From the NCBI GenBank assembly GCA_963735875.1, contig CAVTMO010000007.1, positions 449,783-513,782 on the forward strand: DNA of 64,000 nt, read 5' to 3'. Within the stretch, counting starts at the first letter, position 1. Every line of letters starts with the position of its first letter. The DNA comes from an uncultured Acidobacteriota bacterium. Lineage in GTDB: Bacteria > Acidobacteriota > Vicinamibacteria > Vicinamibacterales > UBA2999. The notes below the pieces were generated by a model. That model did no database searches. It was not told the origin of the DNA and saw only the letters and a program-made list of their open reading frames with translations. Below, one piece after another: positions 1,638 to 12,719 of this stretch. The translations under genes were made by a program, and so were the position numbers.

Positions 1638-3251
1638 TCAGTCGCCGGCTTCGGCCATCGCCTGGATCCGGGCCCGCTCGGCCTTGGATCCGGCGATCGC
1701 CAGTTCCAGCGCGTCGTCCGAGAGGCTGGTGAGGTCGGCCGCGGCACTCTTGGCGTCGGCATGCTCGACCGCGCGCGAGAGCACTTCGGCGTTGGTCGCC
1801 CCCGCCTTCTTGCCGAGGAAGGGCTTCACAATCAGGTAGATGACGTCGCGCAGCGGCATGAAACGCAGGAACCGCCCCAGCAGCCGGAAGGTCTGGATGG
1901 GGAAGCGCGTGAACTTGTAGAGGATGAGCTTCCGCATCTCCTCCGAGCGGATGCGGTGGACTTCCTCGCCCGGCAGGCAGCTCGGATCGATCGAGGTGCA
2001 CTTGAAGTACTTGTACCAGTCGGCGGCGTCGTTGACGAGGCCGCGCTTGACGTACTCCTGCCACAGCGGCGTGCCGCGATAGACACACAGGCGGTTGAAG
2101 CCGAAGCTGTCGATGCGGATCTTCGACGCGAAGCGGAACGTCGCCCGCAGGTCCTCCTCGGTCTCGTCGGGAATGCCGACGACGAAGAAGCCGTGGACGA
2201 TTTCGATGCCGGCGGCCTTGGCATTGGTGACCGCCGACTCGATCTGCTCGAGCGTCTGCTCCTTCTTGAGGCGGTCGAGGATCTTCTGGCTGCCGCTCTC
2301 GATGCCGAACATGACCGTGCGGCAGCCGGATTGCGCCAGCTTGGGGAAGAGGTGCTGCGCCACCGAATCGACGCGGCCCTCGAGCCCGTATTTGATCGGA
2401 TTCCTGGCGGCGATGAGGCCGTCGCAGATCGCCTCGATGCGCTTGGGCTGGAGCAGGAAGTGGTCATCCACGAAGTAGACCGAGCCGTACCCATCCTTCC
2501 GCAGCTGCTCGAACTCGGCGATGACGTGGGCGGGAGTCCGCGCCCGCCACTTGCCCTCGTTGAAGATCGGGATGTCGCAGAACACGCAGGGCCACGGACA
2601 GCCGCGCGACGTCTGCATGGTGGTGAAACGATCCAGCGACAGCACCGCCGGGACGTCGAGCGGCATCGACTCGACGAAGTCGAGCGGCAGGCTCTCGCGG
2701 TCGGGGAAGGGCCACTGGTCGAGGTCGCGCGGCAGCGCCCGGTTCGGGTTGTTGCGGAGCGTGCCGTCCTTCTCCTGCCAGGTGACGCCGGTCACCGTGT
2801 CGGGATCGTTCAGGTGCTCGAGCAGGTCGACGATGAGCTGCTCGCCGTCGCCCCGGCACACGAAGTCGACTTCCCGGCACTGCGCCTTGACCAGTGGCGC
2901 GTTCAGCGTGGCGAACACGCCGCCGAACGCCAGCTTGACGTCGGCATCGGCGGCGCGCAGCTGCCGCGCCAGGACCTTGGCGTAGGGATAGCTGGTGGTC
3001 GACAGGAAGCTCATGCCGACCAGGTCGGGCTTTTGCCGCCGCATCTCGTCGACGATGACGGTGTTGGGCGTGTCGGGATTGGCCTGATCGAACATCGTGA
3101 CCTCGTGGCCGGCGCGCTTGAGCACCGACGAGAGGGACATGATGCCGATCGGTGGGAACCCCATGACCTGCAGGCGGCCGTTCGCGGCCCGTGCCTGTCG
3201 CGGGATGGCGTAGAACTGTGGATCGCGAACGTGGATCAGGAAGGCTCGCAC
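1638..3251 (-). CDS. B12-binding (class B) radical SAM enzyme
   Basis: N-terminal cobalamin-binding-like Rossmann segment (GFPPIGIMSLSSVLKRAGHEVTMFDQ). CxxxCxxC cluster motif SRGCPWPCVFCD. GTG start 32 nt downstream of the preceding DUF4159 gene on the same strand. Confidence 0.8.
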   Translation of the reverse strand: MRAFLIHVRDPQFYAIPRQARAANGRLQVMGFPPIGIMSLSSVLKRAGHEVTMFDQANPDTPNTVIVDEMRRQKPDLVGMSFLSTTSYPYAKVLARQLRAADADVKLAFGGVFATLNAPLVKAQCREVDFVCRGDGEQLIVDLLEHLNDPDTVTGVTWQEKDGTLRNNPNRALPRDLDQWPFPDRESLPLDFVESMPLDVPAVLSLDRFTTMQTSRGCPWPCVFCDIPIFNEGKWRARTPAHVIAEFEQLRKDGYGSVYFVDDHFLLQPKRIEAICDGLIAARNPIKYGLEGRVDSVAQHLFPKLAQSGCRTVMFGIESGSQKILDRLKKEQTLEQIESAVTNAKAAGIEIVHGFFVVGIPDETEEDLRATFRFASKIRIDSFGFNRLCVYRGTPLWQEYVKRGLVNDAADWYKYFKCTSIDPSCLPGEEVHRIRSEEMRKLILYKFTRFPIQTFRLLGRFLRFMPLRDVIYLIVKPFLGKKAGATNAEVLSRAVEHADAKSAAADLTSLSDDALELAIAGSKAERARIQAMAEAGD

Positions 3252-3283: not shown

Positions 3284-4123
3284 TCAGTGGCTCATCGCGT
3301 AGAGCATGATGTTCAGCGCCGTCGCGTAGCCGTTGGGCGAGTAGGTGTAGAAATACTCCGGGTCTTCGCCCTCGCGCTCCCAGGCGTCGGAGATGTCGGT
3401 GTTGTGCGTGGCCAGCACCATCAGCTCACCCTTGGCGTTGGTGATGCCGCGCAGGTGCACCTCGGCGCTGTCCTCGCCACGCTCCGACGACGTCGCCCCG
3501 CCCGATCCCCGCCAGAACTGGATCGACGGAATCTGCGGGATCGCCGACAGCGGAAACATCATCCGGTAGATGGGGTGATCGGACCCGAAGTCCTTGATCG
3601 GATACTGCGCTGGCGGCAGGACGCGGGCGATCTCGCCCTCGAAGACGTCCCAGGCCCGCGGGCCCCAGAAGTCGTCGACCCACAGGAAGCCGCCCTTCAG
3701 CAGGTAGTCGCGCAGGGCGAGCACCTCGTCGTCGCGCAGCTCCATCGTGCCGACGTCCGCCCCGAGCACGAACGGGCAGCGGTACAGCCACGGGTCGGTG
3801 AGGCGCACCACCCAGTGGTTCGGCACGCCGCTGGGCTGCTTGCTCACCCGCGTCTTGGTCAGCTCGGCGAAGCGGATCGAGAAGTTGATGTCGGCGTCGG
3901 GGTAGTCGGTGGACCAGCCCTGGCCACCGGGCTCGCGCCAGCGGCCCGAGTACATCACCCGGCAGAACGTGAAGCCGCCGTCGAAGCTGGCGTCGCTGGT
4001 CGGCAGCCGCGGCGGGACGCGGCGCATGCGCCCGTAGTAGCCGCCGCCCCACTGCGCCGAGGCGCCAGCCGCGGCCAGCAGCACCAGTGCCGTCGTGGCA
4101 GCGACGGCGCGACGGATCGTCAC
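3284..4123 (-). CDS. DUF4159 domain protein (copy 1), secreted
   Basis: Signal peptide (ALVLLAAAGASAQ). Motifs FTFCRVMY, WSTDYPDADINFSIRF, LLKGGFLWVDDFWG. The GTG start overlaps the upstream stop as GTGA. Confidence 0.75.
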   Translation of the reverse strand: MTIRRAVAATTALVLLAAAGASAQWGGGYYGRMRRVPPRLPTSDASFDGGFTFCRVMYSGRWREPGGQGWSTDYPDADINFSIRFAELTKTRVSKQPSGVPNHWVVRLTDPWLYRCPFVLGADVGTMELRDDEVLALRDYLLKGGFLWVDDFWGPRAWDVFEGEIARVLPPAQYPIKDFGSDHPIYRMMFPLSAIPQIPSIQFWRGSGGATSSERGEDSAEVHLRGITNAKGELMVLATHNTDISDAWEREGEDPEYFYTYSPNGYATALNIMLYAMSH

Positions 4124-7100
4124 CGGGGCTGCCCTCGCTGCTGCTTGGCCAGGCTCCGGTAGTACTCCTCGACCATGCTCTTGAACTCCGCCGGCACGTC
4201 GTCGCTGCCCGACAGCAGCACGTCCTTGGCCTCGCCATCGAGCTGGCGCCGCAGGCCGAACTCGAAGCGGCGCAGCCCCTCGCTCACCCCCGCCTGCAGC
4301 CGCGCCAGCTCCTGCACGTCGCGGTAGACGCGGTCGTCGTCGAGGGCCTTGAGGCGCTTCAGGATCTCGTCGAGGTTGCGGGTGTCCACGCCCTCGCCCC
4401 GCAGCGCCCGCCGCAGCGCCTCGAGGTCCTGGCTGTAGCGGCGAGCCTCGCCGCGGAACTGCCGGATGTCGTCGTTGGTGAAGTTGCCGGGCCGGGCGTT
4501 GCCCCAGCCCCCGTTGTCGTCCCAGCCGCCGAAGGTGTCGCCGTAGCCGCCGCCCCCGGCCTGACCGTCGGTATTGGCCTGGCCCGCCTGGCCGCCCTGG
4601 CCCTCCTGGCCCTGCTGTCCTGCCTGTCCCGCCTGGCCTTCCTGGCCTTGCTGACCGGCCTGACCCTGTTGGCCGGCTTGGCCCTGCTGCCCGGCTTGGC
4701 CTTGCTGCCCCTGCTGTCCCTGCTGGCCCTGTTGCCCGGCCTGGCCCTGCTGGCCGCGTTGTCCCGGCTGGCGCTGCTGTCCGTCCTGACCCTGGGCGTT
4801 GGCCTGCTGGCCCTGCCGGTCCTGCCCGGTCGCGCGCTCCTGCATGCGCCGGCCCAGCGAATCCACGCCGCGCACGAGCTCGCGCGCCCGCGCCCGCGTG
4901 TCCTCGCCGTTTTCACCGGCGGCGCCGCTCTTGCCGATCGCCGACGAGGCTTCGGCCAGCTTGCGGCGCAGATCCATCAGGTCCGATCCGATGTCGGCAT
5001 CCATCTCGGCGCCGGCGCCCGGATCGGCGTCACGCCCGACGAACTGGCGCGAGTAGCGCAGCTTTTCCTTGGTCTTGTCGTCGCGAATCCCGCTGGCGGC
5101 CTCCTGCAGCCGGCGCGACGAGTCCTTTTCGCCACGGGCCATCTCGTTGGAGAGCCGATCGAGCTGCTGCTCCAGCTGGCCCAGCTTCGAAGACAGGCCC
5201 TCGCGGCGCTGCGCGTTCAGCTGCGACTTCTGCAGCCGATCGGCGCCGGCGTTGTTCAACTGCTCGGCGTCGCTGGCCACGTCGGCGTGCTCGCGCGAGA
5301 TCTCCTCGGCCTGGCGCACGGCATCCTGCACGTCGCGCTCCGAGCGGGCCGCCTGCGCGCCCTGCAGTTGTCGCTGCGCCTGCTGCAGGCGCTCGGCGGC
5401 GGCGGAGGCCTGCCCGGCGGCACTGGGGTCGTTGCCCGCCGCGGCGCGCCGCATCGCATCGGCGGCCTGCTGCATCTGGCGCGCGGCGTTGGCCAGGTCG
5501 GGCCGGTTCTGTTCGCGCGACAGGCGCTCGAGCTGACGGGCCGCCTCCTCGGCCTGCTCGGCCAGGGCCCGTTGCTGATCGCCGCCGCCCGAGGCCGCCT
5601 GTCCGGCGGCCCGGCGGCGCTGGCGCTCGAGTTCCTGCTGCTGGCGCCGGGCCAGCTCCTTCAGCTTCTCGGCCAGCGCGTCGATCCGCTGCTCGGCCTG
5701 GTCCGACTGCGCGCGCGAGCTGGTTTCGTACTGGTTGGCCATCTTGTCCATCTCGAGCTCGAACAAGTCGGCCAGATCCTCGGCAATCGACCCTGCCTGC
5801 TGCCCGCCGCCACCGCCGCCGCTCTGGTTGCGGGTCTGCACCTGCGTCTCGTATTCCTCTTCCGCCTGCTGCAGGTACTGCAGCGCCTTCTGCTCCGGCG
5901 GGAGCGCGCCGTCGGGGCTCCGCTGCTGCAGCTTGGCCTCGGCGGCCTTCATCTCCGCCACCGCCAGCGGCAGCACCTCGGCGATCTTCTGGAAGCTGGG
6001 ATCGGGCGCCACCAGTCGCGAGTTCATGCGGCTGACCAGGCCCTCGACCTGCTCGCGCAGCCGGCCCTGCGACAGGGTCAGCACCACGGTGCTCTCGCGC
6101 AGTTTCTCGGCCGACATCGTCCGCTTCTCGCGCACGGTGTTGAAGGTGGCGGCGATGATCTGCCGCTGGGCCTCCGACAACGCGCCAACTTCGGCGCCGC
6201 CGCCCCCGCCACCGCCGCCACCACCGGCCATCGAGGTGGCCGGCTTGAAGTCCTTGCCGAACGGCCGGATGCGCAGGAAGTACATGTCGCTGGTCGCCTG
6301 CTTGCCGCCACCGCTGTCGTTGTCGGCGGCCCGCGCGTAGTAGGCCACCGCGTCCCCGGCCTCGACGCCGAGCTCCTCCATGTAGAAGGTGTGTCCGGCG
6401 GTCACCTCCTCGAGACGCCGGGCGCCGCGGTAGAGCGGGACGATCTTCTCTGCACTGCCGTTCACCGAGTAGACGAGCTCGAGGTTGCGCACGCCGAAGT
6501 CGTCGTCGGCGCGGGCCTCGACGAAGAACTCCTCCACCGGCGTGGCGTTGGTGTCGCGACCGGGCTTGGCGATCGACACGGTGGGCGCCATGTCGGTGAG
6601 CACGTCGATGACGTACTGCGGCGAGGCGGTGATCATCTTGCCGTCGGGGCCCTGCATGCCGACGCGGTAGAAGCCGTCCTTGTCGGCGACGAACCGGCCG
6701 GTCAGCTTGCCCTCGGCGCCGGCGGTGAGCGGCACCGCGGCGCTTTCGTGCAGCGTGAGCTCGCCGGCCGGCGTCGGCATGGTCGGGGTGACGGTGACGA
6801 GCACCTCGGTGCCGACCAGCACGGCGATGTCGCCGGCGTCCTCCACGACCCGGGGCTCGAGGCCGGTGTAGGCGGGGAAGTGGTACTCGAGGTCGATGCG
6901 CTGGGCGTAGGGCAGGTCGATGACTTCGAGGGTGAAGGTGTCCGACCGCACGCCGGCCGCCTCGGCCAGGAACTCGAGCTTCGCGTCGAGGTCGAAGATC
7001 ATGCCCTCGAACGTGCCGTTGTCGCCCTTGAGCAGCGGCACGCGCTCGAACGAGGTCGCGTCGCCCTTGCGGACCAGCAGCACGGCGTCGTCGGCGGTGA

Positions 7101-7767
7101 AGCCGCTCAGCGTGGCGGTGAAGGTCTGATCCGAGCCGCGCGGCACGGTGCCGCTGCCGGGCGTGACCGCGATCCGATACGGCGCCGCCGCCTCCACGCC
7201 CTGCCACGAGAACATCGCGGTGAGGCTCTGGCGCAGGTAGGCGGGCCCGAGGATGAAGACGGCCAAGGCGAGGGCCAGGGCGCCGGCGGCCATCAGCCCG
7301 TACTTCTTGAGCAGCGGCTGCTCGATCCCGCGGCCGTCGTCCACGGCCTGGCAGCGGGCGATGGCTTCCTCGACCAGCTTGCGGACGAACGCCGGCGAGT
7401 GCTCCTGCGGGTTGCCGTTGCGCTCGGCGCTCATCGCGCTCAGCAGCAGCGTGTTCAGCGACGGTTCGTGCTCTTCGAGGTACAGCGCCACCTGCTCGTC
7501 GCTCACCTGACGGAGCAGCGGGCGGCCGAACGCCCACGCCGCCAGGCCGAGGATGGCGGCGATGGTGCCGATGCGGAAGGCGAGGATGGCGGTGGGGGTG
7601 AAGCGCAGCGCCTCGAGGGCGAACCCGGCGGCGATCAGGATGACGGCGCTGGCCACCACCACCTGCAGGACGGCGCGCACCAGGAGCTTGCGCCGCCAGC
7701 GAGCGCGCACCTCGCGGATGACGCCCGCGACGTCGCCAGTGGACACGTTCGGTCGCTCGCGGAGCAT
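4120..7767 (-). CDS. Large membrane-anchored DUF4175-like protein with beta-rich, coiled-coil and collagen-like Gly-Gln-X regions
   Basis: Intact 1215-aa ORF with GAGGAGG upstream of the ATG. N-terminal TM helices (VVVASAVILIAAGFAL, IGTIAAILGLAAWAF, LMAAGALALALAVFILG). Poly-Gly runs, long E/R/Q/A-rich helical segments, and a conserved-looking tail VPAEFKSMVEEYYRSLAK. Confidence 0.7.
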   Translation of the reverse strand: MLRERPNVSTGDVAGVIREVRARWRRKLLVRAVLQVVVASAVILIAAGFALEALRFTPTAILAFRIGTIAAILGLAAWAFGRPLLRQVSDEQVALYLEEHEPSLNTLLLSAMSAERNGNPQEHSPAFVRKLVEEAIARCQAVDDGRGIEQPLLKKYGLMAAGALALALAVFILGPAYLRQSLTAMFSWQGVEAAAPYRIAVTPGSGTVPRGSDQTFTATLSGFTADDAVLLVRKGDATSFERVPLLKGDNGTFEGMIFDLDAKLEFLAEAAGVRSDTFTLEVIDLPYAQRIDLEYHFPAYTGLEPRVVEDAGDIAVLVGTEVLVTVTPTMPTPAGELTLHESAAVPLTAGAEGKLTGRFVADKDGFYRVGMQGPDGKMITASPQYVIDVLTDMAPTVSIAKPGRDTNATPVEEFFVEARADDDFGVRNLELVYSVNGSAEKIVPLYRGARRLEEVTAGHTFYMEELGVEAGDAVAYYARAADNDSGGGKQATSDMYFLRIRPFGKDFKPATSMAGGGGGGGGGGAEVGALSEAQRQIIAATFNTVREKRTMSAEKLRESTVVLTLSQGRLREQVEGLVSRMNSRLVAPDPSFQKIAEVLPLAVAEMKAAEAKLQQRSPDGALPPEQKALQYLQQAEEEYETQVQTRNQSGGGGGGQQAGSIAEDLADLFELEMDKMANQYETSSRAQSDQAEQRIDALAEKLKELARRQQQELERQRRRAAGQAASGGGDQQRALAEQAEEAARQLERLSREQNRPDLANAARQMQQAADAMRRAAAGNDPSAAGQASAAAERLQQAQRQLQGAQAARSERDVQDAVRQAEEISREHADVASDAEQLNNAGADRLQKSQLNAQRREGLSSKLGQLEQQLDRLSNEMARGEKDSSRRLQEAASGIRDDKTKEKLRYSRQFVGRDADPGAGAEMDADIGSDLMDLRRKLAEASSAIGKSGAAGENGEDTRARARELVRGVDSLGRRMQERATGQDRQGQQANAQGQDGQQRQPGQRGQQGQAGQQGQQGQQGQQGQAGQQGQAGQQGQAGQQGQEGQAGQAGQQGQEGQGGQAGQANTDGQAGGGGYGDTFGGWDDNGGWGNARPGNFTNDDIRQFRGEARRYSQDLEALRRALRGEGVDTRNLDEILKRLKALDDDRVYRDVQELARLQAGVSEGLRRFEFGLRRQLDGEAKDVLLSGSDDVPAEFKSMVEEYYRSLAKQQRGQPR
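4576..4791 (-). repeat. Coding tandem triplet repeat: 21 uninterrupted Gly-Gln-X triplets (4576-4764), plus a further interrupted stretch up to 4791
   Basis: Translation reads GQR GQQ GQA GQQ GQQ GQQ GQQ GQA GQQ GQA GQQ GQA GQQ GQE GQA GQA GQQ GQE GQG GQA GQA. The DNA is an imperfect 9-nt CTGGCCCTG-type repeat on the plus strand. Confidence 0.9.
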
Positions 7768-7810
7768 CGATCCTCCTCGTGCCGGCGCCTGCGCCGAGCT
7801 TCCGACCCGT

Positions 7811-9835
7811 CTACGCCGCCGCCTTCGACATGCGGCTGGCGACGAGCGATTCGGCGATCAACAGCAGCATACCTGCAAGGAGCAGGTACCACCACAGCCG
7901 TTGCGACTGCTCGGTCACCTCGTCGCGCGGCGGCTCGACGCCGGTGCCGGCCGCCGCCTGGGCCCCCGAGCCGCCGGTGGCGACAGCGGTCACGTCGGCG
8001 GGATCGACCCCGGCCAGATCAGACTCCGTGAGGTCGACGTTGGCCGCCACCACGGCTTCCACCGTTTGTCCCGGGCCCTCCGGCCGCACCTCGTAGAACC
8101 CGGGCACCGTCACTTCGACGGCGTCGCCGCGCGCCGGGTCGAGCGGCGCCCGGCGGCCCGAGGGCTCCACCACGACACGGGCCGCGCCGCCGTCGGGGCG
8201 CCGGTCGAGCGCCGCGACCTGGCCCACCGTCAGCGACGCCGGCCGATCCCGGAACGCCGCCAGGGTGCGGACCAGTTGGTGGACGAAGGGCAGGAAGACG
8301 GGCTTCAGCGCCAGGTCGCTCCACGCGAGATCGAATCCCGACGTCCACACCAGCATCCGCCCGGTGCCGACGGCGCGTTCGACCAGGGCCGGCTGCCCGT
8401 CGTCGTAGCGCGCCAGCACGCGGGCGTCGGGCGCGGCGGTGAGCCGGCGATAGCCGTACACCCGCACGCTCGAGAAGTCGCCGCTGCGCGGCGCCCGGAA
8501 CGGCGAGAAGATCGTATGGCCGTACTCGACGCTGCCCAGCCGGCCGACCGCGCGCGATCGATCGACCGGCTCGCCCAGCGTTCCGGGCAGCGCTGCGCCC
8601 TGCGGCCACGACGCCCGGCTGCCGGCGACCACGAGCACGCCGCCGCCGCGTTCGGCAAAGGTGGTGAGCCGCGCGATCACCGCGTCGCCCAGCGGCGCGT
8701 CGTTCACGACGACGACGTGGGCCTTGGCCAGCGCGTCGTCGGTGACCGCATCGAGGGCCGTGGCGGTGACATCGAAGCGCGGCGACTCGCCGATGGCCAG
8801 AGCGCGCCGCAGGTAGGTGTCGTCGGCAGCGCGCCCGCCCGGCCCGGCGAGCAGCACCTGCACCGGGCGCGTTTCACGCAACACGAAGTGGAAAGCGTTG
8901 TCGGCGGCCAGCGCGTCGTCGGCGACACGGACGACGCCGCGCAGCCCGGCGGGCGTCACCGTGACCGGCGCGAAGACGTGGGACGCCGACGCCTGCGGCG
9001 CCACCTCCACGTGCGCGGTCTCGACCACGCGGCCGTCGATTTCCAGGGCGAGCGCGACGCCGGAGACCGGGGCGGTGCCGCGGTTGGTCACGCCGCCGGT
9101 GACGGTGACGCGCTCCTGGCCCTCGAAGCGCCCCCGTCGCAGCGCCACTGGCGCGACGGCGAGATTGACGGTGTCGAGGTCGCCGACCGAGACCGGCGAG
9201 AACGTGGTGCCCGCCGGCAGGCGCTGGTCGTCGGTGGGCGCCCAGCCGTTCTTCTGGAAGTCGGTGATGAGCACCACCTCCCGGCGGGGCCGGGTGGACT
9301 CGGCGGCAATCGTCCCGGCCACCTTGAGCGCCGGGCCGTAGCGCGTGGCCTCGGCGCCCGGCGTCGCGGCAGCGATGGCCGCCAGGAGCCGCGCGCGATC
9401 GTCGATCGACTGCAGCACCACCTCCGACCCGGTGCCGAAGAGCACCAGGCTGGCCCGGTCGGAGGCGCCCAGTCCGTCGATCGCCTGGCGGGCCGCCGCC
9501 TGCGCCCGCGTCCAGCGATCGCCGTAGCCCATGCTGTAGGACCGGTCGAGCAGCACGATCACTTCCCGCGCCCCGCCGCCGATGGCGGCGACCGAGCCGC
9601 GCACGAACGGACGGGCAAACGCCGCCACGATCAGCGCCAGCGCCCCCAGCCGCATGGCCAGCAGAAGCCAGTGGCGGATCTTGCGCCGGCGCACCGACTC
9701 GTAGGGCACGCGGCGCACGAACATCAGCGACGGGAAGGCGATGATCTGGTTCTTCTCGCGCTGGATGAGGTGAATCAGCACCGGTACGGCCAGCGCGCCC
9801 AGGCCGAGGAGAAAGAGGGGCAGCAGGAACGCCAT
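7811..9835 (-). CDS. BatA-type protein: N-terminal double-transmembrane domain plus von Willebrand factor A domain
   Basis: N-terminus MAFLLPLFLLGLGALAVPVLIHLI is typical of the aerotolerance-regulator N-terminal domain. VWA MIDAS motif VLLDRSYSM. C-terminal TM helix LWWYLLLAGMLLLIA. Confidence 0.8.
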   Translation of the reverse strand: MAFLLPLFLLGLGALAVPVLIHLIQREKNQIIAFPSLMFVRRVPYESVRRRKIRHWLLLAMRLGALALIVAAFARPFVRGSVAAIGGGAREVIVLLDRSYSMGYGDRWTRAQAAARQAIDGLGASDRASLVLFGTGSEVVLQSIDDRARLLAAIAAATPGAEATRYGPALKVAGTIAAESTRPRREVVLITDFQKNGWAPTDDQRLPAGTTFSPVSVGDLDTVNLAVAPVALRRGRFEGQERVTVTGGVTNRGTAPVSGVALALEIDGRVVETAHVEVAPQASASHVFAPVTVTPAGLRGVVRVADDALAADNAFHFVLRETRPVQVLLAGPGGRAADDTYLRRALAIGESPRFDVTATALDAVTDDALAKAHVVVVNDAPLGDAVIARLTTFAERGGGVLVVAGSRASWPQGAALPGTLGEPVDRSRAVGRLGSVEYGHTIFSPFRAPRSGDFSSVRVYGYRRLTAAPDARVLARYDDGQPALVERAVGTGRMLVWTSGFDLAWSDLALKPVFLPFVHQLVRTLAAFRDRPASLTVGQVAALDRRPDGGAARVVVEPSGRRAPLDPARGDAVEVTVPGFYEVRPEGPGQTVEAVVAANVDLTESDLAGVDPADVTAVATGGSGAQAAAGTGVEPPRDEVTEQSQRLWWYLLLAGMLLLIAESLVASRMSKAAA

Positions 9836-9844
9836 CGGCCAGCC

Positions 9845-10752
9845 TCAGCGCATCCGCAGTGACCGCTCACGGAACGACAGGTAGTCGTAGAGCGCGAAGT
9901 CGAGCGGCCGTGAGGTGTCGAGCATGCGGTAGTCGACGCCGCGTTCCGCGGCCTTGGCGGTGAGCTCGGCGACGTGCGCCTGCACCAGCGCCCGGTACTT
10001 GTCGCGGAACGACTCGGGCACCACCGGCAGCTGCTCGCCGCTCTCCAGGTCCTCGAACGCCGACGGATCGGTGTAGGGGAACTCGAGCTCGGCCGGATCG
10101 AGCACGTGGAACACCACCACGTCGCTGCCACGGAAGCGGATCGGGGCCAGGGCCTCGAAGATCGCCTCGGGCTCGTCGTACAAGTCCGAGAGCAGCACGA
10201 CCATCCCGCGGCGGCCGAAGTGCTCGGCCAGCTTGCGCAGCGGCGACGAGAGCTGTCCCGGGCGGGCGGCCTTGGCGCGATCGAGCGTGTGCAGCACCAC
10301 GTCGAGGTGCTTGGCCGACGGCGGCACGTGATCGACGACGTCGCTGTCGAAGGTGATGAGGCCGACGCGGTCGCGCTGGCGGTGCACCAGATAGGTGAGG
10401 CACGCCGCCAGCGTCTTGGCGTAGTCGAGCTTGGTGATGCGCGGTCCGAACGCCATCGACGACGACACGTCGAGCAGCACGACGAAGTTGGAGTTGGAGT
10501 CGGCCTCGAACTCCTTCACGAAGTACTTGTCGGTGCGGGCATAGACCCGCCAGTCGACGCGCCGGATGTCGTCGCCCGGCACGTAGCCGCGGTGCTCGGC
10601 GAAGTCGACCGAGCTGCCGAAGAACGGCGATCGGTGCAGGCCGTTGATCACCCCGTCGACCACCGAGCGGGCCACGAAATCCAGGTTGCCGATGCGCGCC
10701 AGCACCGCCGGGTCGACGAACTGCGCGCCGGGAATCGCGCCGCCGAGCTGCA

Positions 10753-10753
<1 letters not shown>
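9845..10753 (-). CDS. DUF58 family protein (VWA-like, MoxR partner)
   Basis: Motifs HRSPFFGSSVDFAEHRGYVPGDDIRRVDWRVYARTDKYFVKEFE and VVLLDVSSSM. The ATG at 10753-10751 overlaps the MoxR stop (TGATG). The listed 656-aa ORF is an artefactual upstream extension. Confidence 0.85.
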
Positions 10754-11787
<1,034 letters not shown>

Positions 11788-11900: not shown

Positions 11901-12719
11901 CTAGTGCGTCATACCGTACACGATGTAGTTCACGCCGAACTTGTAGGCCTCGTTCGACAGGTCGATCGGCACCCAGCCGGTGTCCGAGAACTCCCAGTAC
12001 TCGCCCAGGTCGTTGTCGTAGTTGGCGACCACCTGCAGCCGCTTGTCCGGGTCGTTGTCCTCGAAGATGCCATGGAAGGTCGGCGTCAGCCCGCCGTAGG
12101 GCGAGACGAAGCGCGACGGGTCGATCTCGAAGAAGGCGTGGAACACCGGATGGGAGCCGTCGAGCGGCACCAGCCGCTGGGTCGGCAGCACCTTGCGGAG
12201 CTGCGCCTCGAAGTTGTACCAGTGCTCCTGGCGGAAGTCGTCGAAGATGATGAAGCCGCCCTTGGCCAGGTAGGTGCGCAGGCCCTCGGCCTCCTGGTCG
12301 TTCAGCGTCCAGTAGCCCGGCTCCGACATGTAGGCCACCGGGTAGCGGTGGAGCTCGGGGTCGTCGAGCGTGAAGATGTTGCTGTCGTCGAGGTGCGGAC
12401 GCAGCAGCGTGATCTCGCTCAGGATCTTCATCAGGTGGCGATCGGCGCGCGGGTAGTCGTGCGCCCACGGCGGCTCGCGCCTGAAACCGCCGAACCCGCC
12501 CCGGCCGCCGGCCAGGTGATAGCGCAGCCGCACGAACGCGAAGCGCCCGTCGTACTCGACCTGCACGCCTTCCAGATCCACCGGTGCCGCCCGCCGCCGT
12601 TCCCGTTCACCGGCGAAGGGGCCGCGCTGGGCGGCCAGCGCCACGGCCCCGAGCGTGATCATGGCGACGGCGGCCGTGACCAGCGCCCGCCGCCCGCGGT
12701 CACGAGAGGCCGACGGCAC
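11901..12719 (-). CDS. DUF4159 domain protein (copy 2)
   Basis: Signal anchor RRALVTAAVAMITLGAVALAAQ. Motifs FAFVRLRY, WAHDYPRADRHLMKIL, LAKGGFIIFDDFR. Overlaps the 3' end of the upstream gene by 20 nt; the alternative ATG at 12662 would remove the overlap. Confidence 0.75.
   Translation of the reverse strand: MPSASRDRGRRALVTAAVAMITLGAVALAAQRGPFAGERERRRAAPVDLEGVQVEYDGRFAFVRLRYHLAGGRGGFGGFRREPPWAHDYPRADRHLMKILSEITLLRPHLDDSNIFTLDDPELHRYPVAYMSEPGYWTLNDQEAEGLRTYLAKGGFIIFDDFRQEHWYNFEAQLRKVLPTQRLVPLDGSHPVFHAFFEIDPSRFVSPYGGLTPTFHGIFEDNDPDKRLQVVANYDNDLGEYWEFSDTGWVPIDLSNEAYKFGVNYIVYGMTH

Follow-up and report, generated by a model that had tools for sequence, protein, structure and literature searches.

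A proline-free (Gly-Gln-X)21 run in an acidobacterial DUF4175-family protein is probably part of a disordered Gln/Gly tether

Introduction

A collagen-like region is recognised by an uninterrupted (Gly-X-Y)n run of substantial length, by a stabilising composition at X and Y (Pro, Thr, or many charged or polar pairs), by a Gly register that is conserved among orthologs, and by a neighbouring trimerisation domain or a trimeric assembly. A triple helix itself shows as a CD maximum near 220 nm, cooperative melting and resistance to proteases. In bacterial collagens, Pro is the commonest residue at X and Thr the commonest at Y, and polar or charged residues give stability (PMC8968730). Bucl8 of Burkholderia sits on an outer-membrane efflux channel that was modelled by its authors as a trimer, and its Pro-free (GAS)19 region gave a weak triple-helix signal in CD (PMC7682875).

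DUF4175 (PF13779) proteins begin with transmembrane helices, and the large part beyond these is extracytoplasmic and contains low-complexity stretches. The only DUF4175 protein that we found in the literature is AdvA of Acinetobacter, where the match lies at the N-terminal membrane region, and it gave no functional lead for the protein described here. Gln/Gly-rich sequence is also familiar from disordered tethers: the periplasmic linker of FtsN and the C-terminal linker of SSB are rich in Gln, Gly and Pro, and they are not strictly periodic.

Here we report on P0001, a 1215-residue protein encoded in the window, the 64,000-nucleotide stretch of acidobacterial DNA that was analysed. P0001 shares with Bucl8 a Pro-free, near-homopolymeric G-X-Y repeat of about 20 triplets that is followed by an unstructured region in an envelope protein. 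The Bucl8 repeat has a trimer model and weak CD support, whereas the P0001 tract is known from its sequence and a monomer model, and its relatives break the register. As in Scl1/Scl2, Lcl and BclA, the uninterrupted 21-triplet run passes the PF01391 cut-off, but it is without Pro, has almost no charge, and keeps no conserved register among orthologs. P0001 is moreover anchored in the membrane via N-terminal helices, in contrast to the LPXTG surface anchoring of bacterial collagen-like proteins. Its N-terminal hydrophobic helices and its large C-terminal part with Gln/Gly-rich low complexity are those of a DUF4175 protein, although its linker is, as it happens, a strict array of G-Q-X units and the Pfam match is partial. 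With the FtsN and SSB linkers the tract shares the character of an uncharged, Gln/Gly-rich, low-complexity tether between folded modules that changes fast in length and sequence, a likeness that does not imply homology.

Results

The host protein and its gene cluster

The P0001 gene lies in a MoxR/DUF58/BatA-VWA/DUF4159 cluster in which every neighbour is on the minus strand, and which also encodes a VWA/GATase1-like protein on that strand. The genes around it, and the elements of P0001 outside the tract, are as follows.

3284-4123, minus strand: downstream DUF4159 gene (PF13709, 9e-30), beginning at a GTG that shares bases with the stop codon of the 1215-residue gene
4120-7767, minus strand: coding sequence of P0001, a DUF4175-family membrane protein of 1215 residues (PF13779, 37.1 bits), with full-length orthologs in 38 of 41 related genomes
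4123-4482, minus strand: conserved C-terminal four-helix domain (residues 1096-1215), with no Pfam family and no significant fold match
5803-5820, minus strand: Gly6 run within the helical region (residues 650-655), conserved family-wide
6196-6225, minus strand: Gly10 run between the beta domains and the helical region (residues 515-524), conserved family-wide
7811-9835, minus strand: upstream gene with BatA N-terminal and VWA domains (domain match)
9845-10756, minus strand: DUF58 (VWA-like) gene (domain match)
10753-11787, minus strand: MoxR AAA+ ATPase gene (AAA_3 and AAA_lid_2; domain match)
11901-12719, minus strand: second DUF4159 gene (domain match)

BatA-like and DUF4159-like neighbours are also present at the ortholog loci. 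The strand of the P0001 gene had gone unmentioned in the initial annotation. We discarded a plus-strand ORF at 4087-8031 (1314 residues), taking it for a GC-rich shadow of the gene on the other strand, because homologues and Pfam matches occur only in the minus-strand frame.

The PF13779 score compares with a gathering cut-off of 27.3 bits (37.3 bits were obtained in the whole-genome scan), and the match covers only parts of the 825-position model, namely positions 183-335 and, at 25 bits, positions 654-765. Orthologs carry the name 'DUF4175 family protein' in the source databases, and the names that homologues bear there indicate a probable origin in Vicinamibacterales (Acidobacteriota). The alphaproteobacterial NCBIfam model TIGR02302 (aProt_lowcomp) gave no match to P0001 at E<=0.1. 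Hydropathy peaks at windows starting at residues 26-39, 58-62 and 155-161. The topology expected of a DUF4175 protein, N-terminal transmembrane helices and then a large extracytoplasmic part with low-complexity stretches, is thus predicted for P0001, in agreement with AlphaFold2. Judging by the three hydrophobic helices near its N-terminus, which itself is rich in Arg and Lys, the C-terminal part and the linker of P0001 are probably periplasmic.

We examined the predicted structure in an AlphaFold2 monomer model of residues 21-1215, built from 69 sequences (model number plus 20 gives the protein number), with a mean pLDDT of 73. The N-terminal helices are seen, and they are followed by beta-sandwich domains at model residues 178-480 (tandem Ig/MG-like domains according to Foldseek), by long helices at model residues 505-967 (pLDDT 75-94), and by a helical C-terminal domain at model residues 1078-1187 (pLDDT 85-92); confidence is low at the Gly runs. 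A prediction for the C-terminal domain on its own gives a unit of four helices with a pTM of 0.62. A Foldseek search of this domain against the PDB returned nothing better than E 0.8, and with the whole model only the Ig/MG-like beta domains found PDB matches (the C3, ICAM and KIT ectodomains), leaving the tract unmatched. From the N-terminus onwards, P0001 therefore consists of three hydrophobic helices, Ig/MG-like beta domains in tandem, a long stretch of helices, the Gln/Gly linker and, at the C-terminal end, a domain of four helices. This sketches the architecture of a widespread and unstudied envelope protein of Acidobacteriota, with a membrane anchor, Ig/MG-like domains, a helical stalk, a tether, a Gly/Trp/Asp motif and a four-helix end domain.

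A strict run of 21 Gly-Gln-X triplets

The tract and its surroundings comprise four features.

4576-4764, minus strand: strict (Gly-Gln-X)21 run without Pro (residues 1002-1064); the PF01391 match spans residues 992-1044
4765-4839, minus strand: degenerate Gln/Gly triplets upstream of the run, ERATGQDRQGQQANAQGQDGQQRQP (residues 977-1001), including the in-register Gly-to-Arg triplet RQP
4483-4557, minus strand: conserved Gly/Trp/Asp motif GGGGYGDTFGGWDDNGGWGNARPGN (residues 1071-1095), family consensus G.GDT.G...DG.GG.GDRRPG
4492-4815, minus strand: predicted disordered segment with no secondary structure (residues 985-1092, model 965-1072; pLDDT 25-32)

Translation bears out the run as it was first described, with 21 unbroken triplets, Gln fixed at X, and Gln, Ala, Glu, Gly or Arg at Y. 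The triplets read GQR GQQ GQA GQQ GQQ GQQ GQQ GQA GQQ GQA GQQ GQA, and continue GQQ GQE GQA GQA GQQ GQE GQG GQA GQA. Among the 42 X and Y positions there is no Pro, and three are charged. The longer span 4576-4791 adds GQD GQQ RQP, which keeps the register with one Gly replaced by Arg and gives 24 triplets when these are counted. The other features that had been reported are likewise present: interrupted triplets before the run (from residue 977), a Gly/Trp-rich segment after it (GGGGYGDTFGGWDDNGGWG, residues 1071-1089), and a 10-Gly and a 6-Gly run in the same protein. Conservation of the Gly/Trp/Asp motif among orthologs far exceeds that of the GQX run.

In the structure model, the coil takes in both the GQX tract and the motif rich in Gly and Trp. 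The low pLDDT is weak evidence, no more than consistent with disorder, because a triple helix could not show up in a model of one chain.

Comparison with collagens

The Pfam Collagen family PF01391 matches P0001 with 32.6 bits against a cut-off of 27.2, and 21 triplets make an uninterrupted run of substantial length; the composition that stabilises collagens at X and Y is absent. The NCBIfam adhesin models that we used (NF038329, NF038330 and NF046116) stayed under their cut-offs on P0001, with 34.7 bits against 325 for Scl2/SclB, 20.8 against 400 for Scl1/SclA and 26.6 against 500 for Lcl. In a PDB sequence search, the tract aligned with collagen chains at E 2e-34. We rejected homology to the PDB collagens I, II, V, VI, IX and XI, as the matches cover the periodic tract alone and reflect only its periodicity. 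Ordinary collagen-like proteins, rich in Pro and without breaks, occur in the same genome (contig C5) and in two congeners (for example GPKGDPGPAGPRGPVGPAGPAG...).

Register and length of the run among orthologs

We compared the tract in 117 orthologs of 50-87% identity, taking from each the segment that is bounded by the motifs ..ARG.DSLG.RM.ER and ..DDIRQFRGE. The flanking motifs are invariant or nearly so, and the tract between them is variable. Almost all of the orthologs have a Gln/Gly-rich core at this site, in which Gln occupies 74% of X and 47% of Y positions, and Pro 0.8% of X and 2.7% of Y positions. The longest unbroken G-X-Y run is 6-69 residues (median 30), reaching at least 36 residues in 53 orthologs and at least 60 in 10, and P0001 is among the top six of the 117. 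The run length therefore does differ among orthologs, as the initial annotation had proposed for the tract.

Where runs are separated by 1-6 residues, the register is shifted 226 times and kept 85 times, so that about one-third are kept, which is the expectation by chance, and the Gly register is therefore not conserved. P0004 and P0010, which are 77-80% identical to P0001, have longest runs of only 21 and 18 residues, and their breaks, GQGQQ and GQQQG, look like the gain or loss of a single Gln codon. In the initial annotation, the strict Gly period of three was taken as a collagen signature, and orthologs lacking Gly-X-Y periodicity at this position were named as the observation that would speak against it. 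The run is real and formally scores as collagen; what the orthologs retain, however, is the richness in Gln and Gly and not the register, which is largely the observation that had been named.

Phylogeny adds to this. In a FastTree tree built from residues 181-961 (model residues 161-941), with the linker left out, the run length of an ortholog differs from that of its nearest neighbour by a mean of 15.4 residues, against 19.6 +/- 2.0 after permutation, a weak phylogenetic signal. Sister tips differ as widely as 60 and 18, 51 and 15, or 51 and 12 residues. Within the genus-level group of the window protein, the runs are 33-69 residues long in 15 of 17 members, and the linker measures 111-138 residues. 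Overall the length of the linker, 110 +/- 16 residues, is steadier than its content (linker = 0.56 x core + 71). Eight orthologs with little or no Gln/Gly core keep a linker of 56-110 residues of different composition; P0116, for example, has a GSE-type tract there, and P0121 has a repeat of the AQGSGDR type. In P0029 (GKD/GQP/GQE) and P0019, the residues at X and Y are varied and Gly is retained over 60-69 residues.

Paralogs and distant relatives fill the same site in other ways. Paralogs in the same order have a period-7 GQPGSQA array in one case, short G/S/E/P stretches in others, and in some nothing. A search with the C-terminal 150 residues (1066-1215) against 1.8 billion representative proteins gave 599 matches at E<=0.001. 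The linkers upstream of the C-terminal domain in these distant relatives are Gly-rich, with GGQQQGQQ (period 8), GGQQQ (period 5) or G/E/P-rich sequence, or are absent; a long G-X-Y run occurs in only one of the 52 usable matches.

The DNA repeat is imperfect

In the tract, repeats with periods of 9, 18, 27, 36, 45 and 63 nt are recognised by Tandem Repeats Finder, but their copies match at only 66-77%. Within 4576-4791, no exact repeated word is longer than 13 nt, and there are five pairs of adjacent identical tripeptides, not one of which is encoded by identical 9-mers. A hypermutable contingency repeat is a long perfect tandem repeat of DNA, which this tract is not. The rare codon CAA is enriched in the run, where it makes up 7 of 30 Gln codons, compared with 2 of 72-73 in the rest of the gene (p = 0.002). 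GGA makes up 4 of the 22 Gly codons of the run and 3 of the 105 in the rest of the gene. CAA enrichment (p<0.05) was also found in five of eight other orthologs tested. As the codons are scrambled and the repeat is imperfect, the array is old and stabilised rather than a slippage hot spot today.

Gly and the Gln at X are invariant over the 21 triplets despite heavy synonymous change, which shows a constraint on both that depends on position and goes beyond bare composition. The pattern shows purifying selection on the Gly and X-position Gln of the run.

Discussion

A Gln/Gly tether

In our view the (GQX)21 run is probably the unusually regular current state of a disordered Gln/Gly tether, its triplet periodicity being a by-product of unit duplication. 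The tract has what is expected of a disordered low-complexity linker, that is, a biased composition, low model confidence and, amid conserved flanks, a length and sequence that turn over fast. From these properties we infer disorder in vivo and a role as a tether. The linker of about 108 residues (985-1092) would join the helical stalk to the Gly/Trp/Asp motif and the C-terminal four-helix domain. The tract probably grew as a 9-nt GGC-CAG-SNN unit, together with higher-order units of 18-63 nt, was duplicated and then blurred by synonymous changes; the three-residue period would stem from this growth, and selection for a triple helix would not be needed to account for it. Selection seems to keep the composition (flexible Gly, soluble uncharged Gln and no Pro) and the rough length of about 110 +/- 16 residues between the conserved flanks, and such a flexible tether could let the C-terminal module reach a periplasmic partner. 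Of the two functional ideas in the initial annotation, trimerisation and a spacer, the spacer is thus the better one. The long runs in the genus-level group, together with the invariance of Gly and of Gln at X, count against a tether.

The P0001 tract also carries a caution for annotation: simple growth by a 9-nt unit can give a disordered linker both a strict Gly-X-Y periodicity and a Pfam Collagen match. A look at the orthologs should therefore come first when a protein with such a match is to be called collagen-like.

A triple helix

Alternatively, the tract could be a facultative, Pro-free, collagen-like triple helix, in which the upstream helices bring three copies into register and, where the runs are long, form a rigid rod of about 18 nm that would hold the C-terminal domain off the membrane. 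We regard this as unlikely. The 21 uninterrupted triplets (24 with one in-register Gly-to-Arg change) and the PF01391 score above cut-off speak for it, as do precomputed PF01391 matches on 14 of the best 120 homologues, and the persistence of Gly over 60-69 residues in P0029 and P0019 while X and Y vary. Gln reportedly has a middling triple-helix propensity at both X and Y in the host-guest data of Persikov et al. from 2000, which we count in its favour. The long helical region upstream could in principle be a trimerising coiled coil, and the weak CD signal of the Pro-free (GAS)19 region of Bucl8 is a precedent (PMC7682875). Against these points stand the register, which is broken at chance frequency, the alternation of long and short runs between sister proteins, and the non-triplet periods at the same site in paralogs. 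The X and Y positions, with Pro at 0 of 42 and charge at 3 of 42, are also unlike those of bacterial collagens (PMC8968730), and the same genomes make ordinary Pro-rich collagen-like proteins. It is similarly improbable that those lineages with at least 20 unbroken triplets have a genuine imino-acid-free triple helix that starts from a trimeric helical stalk, in a protein with its anchor in the inner membrane. If a triple helix did form, it would add a sequence class to the bacterial collagens and would place a periplasmic rod in a MoxR/VWA envelope system, and a Pro-free, Gln-based triple helix would be of interest to collagen chemists and biomaterial engineers.

Slippage and other readings

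It is very unlikely that the tract is a slippage-driven, rapidly length-variable spacer, a contingency-type repeat through which populations would tune how far the C-terminal domain reaches. Near relatives do differ in linker length at the genus level (111-138 residues), the tract is made of 9-nt-based units, and assembly breaks fall at or close to the low-complexity runs in several drafts from relatives. The imperfect DNA repeat, its short exact words and the differing 9-mers of adjacent identical tripeptides argue against slippage, and the excess of CAA, a rare codon, marks the repeat as a stabilised one. The slippage-driven length variation that the initial annotation derived from the 9-nt repeat therefore does not fit the present DNA.

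Purely by conjecture, the tract might be a Gln-rich module for self-association (Gln-zipper or condensate-like) or for deamidation or cross-linking by the glutamine-amidotransferase-like proteins of the cluster, which we consider highly improbable: the cluster does encode two DUF4159 proteins and a GATase1_like/VWA protein, and Gln does dominate X (74%) and is frequent at Y (47%) across orthologs, but the idea is without experimental precedent and the same family includes orthologs that have no Gln-rich core.

Conserved motif, glycine runs and folded region of P0001

Next to the (Gly-Gln-X)21 tract, P0001, the 1215-aa DUF4175-family membrane protein, carries a Gly/Trp/Asp motif that is conserved far above the tract itself:
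4483–4557, minus strand, Gly/Trp/Asp motif GGG.GDT.GGW.DDGGWG.ARPG (residues 1071–1095)
Although conserved, the motif is predicted to be disordered, and it could serve as a short linear motif for binding. We speculate that its conserved Asp residues could contact a VWA metal site of a partner encoded in the same cluster.

Two glycine runs are nearly invariant in an alignment of 69 homologues and resemble conserved hinges, not chance low-complexity stretches:
6196–6225, minus strand, Gly10 run
5803–5820, minus strand, Gly6 run
In the draft genomes of several relatives contig ends fall at about residue 515–520, and one relative's draft contig begins within the Gln/Gly tract (about residue 996).

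The fold of the beta-rich region is that of tandem Ig/macroglobulin-like domains, its top Foldseek matches (E 4e-8 to 1e-5) being the MG domains of complement C3/C5 and Ig ectodomains:
6270–7230, minus strand, beta-rich region including the DUF4175 Pfam match (residues ~180–500)

A DUF4175-like paralog in the same genome

The source genome encodes a shorter DUF4175-like protein on contig C17, adjoined by a BatA-like gene of its own:
C17:368907–371462 (locus L023, 2408–4963), minus strand, DUF4175-like paralog, 851 aa
It contains a short QPGQQGQQGQQNQPRPGG tract followed by a tail resembling out-of-frame sequence (RRCATPPKRCGGRPAVCSS...), and its 851 aa compare with 1100–1250 aa for the paralogs of relatives. 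The low-complexity site may have suffered a frameshift or a truncation.

Pro-rich collagen-like proteins, and two further ORFs of the window

Bona fide Pro-rich collagen-like proteins (for example, GPAGPQGPQGPTGANGTNGVDG...) are encoded in the source genome (L030) and in the congener genomes G003 (L031) and G002 (L032), and this set includes 441-aa secreted proteins with GPKGDPGPAGPRGPVGPAG...:
contig C5, ~124.7–126.0 kb, collagen-like locus L030 of the source genome
The copy at L030 is apparently split over several frames, which could reflect a frameshift or an assembly problem within the repeat.

A 1314-aa plus-strand ORF (4087–8031) was rejected as a gene, being a GC-rich antisense shadow of the true minus-strand gene. 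The same-strand cluster has at its downstream end:
1638–3251, minus strand, B12-binding radical SAM gene
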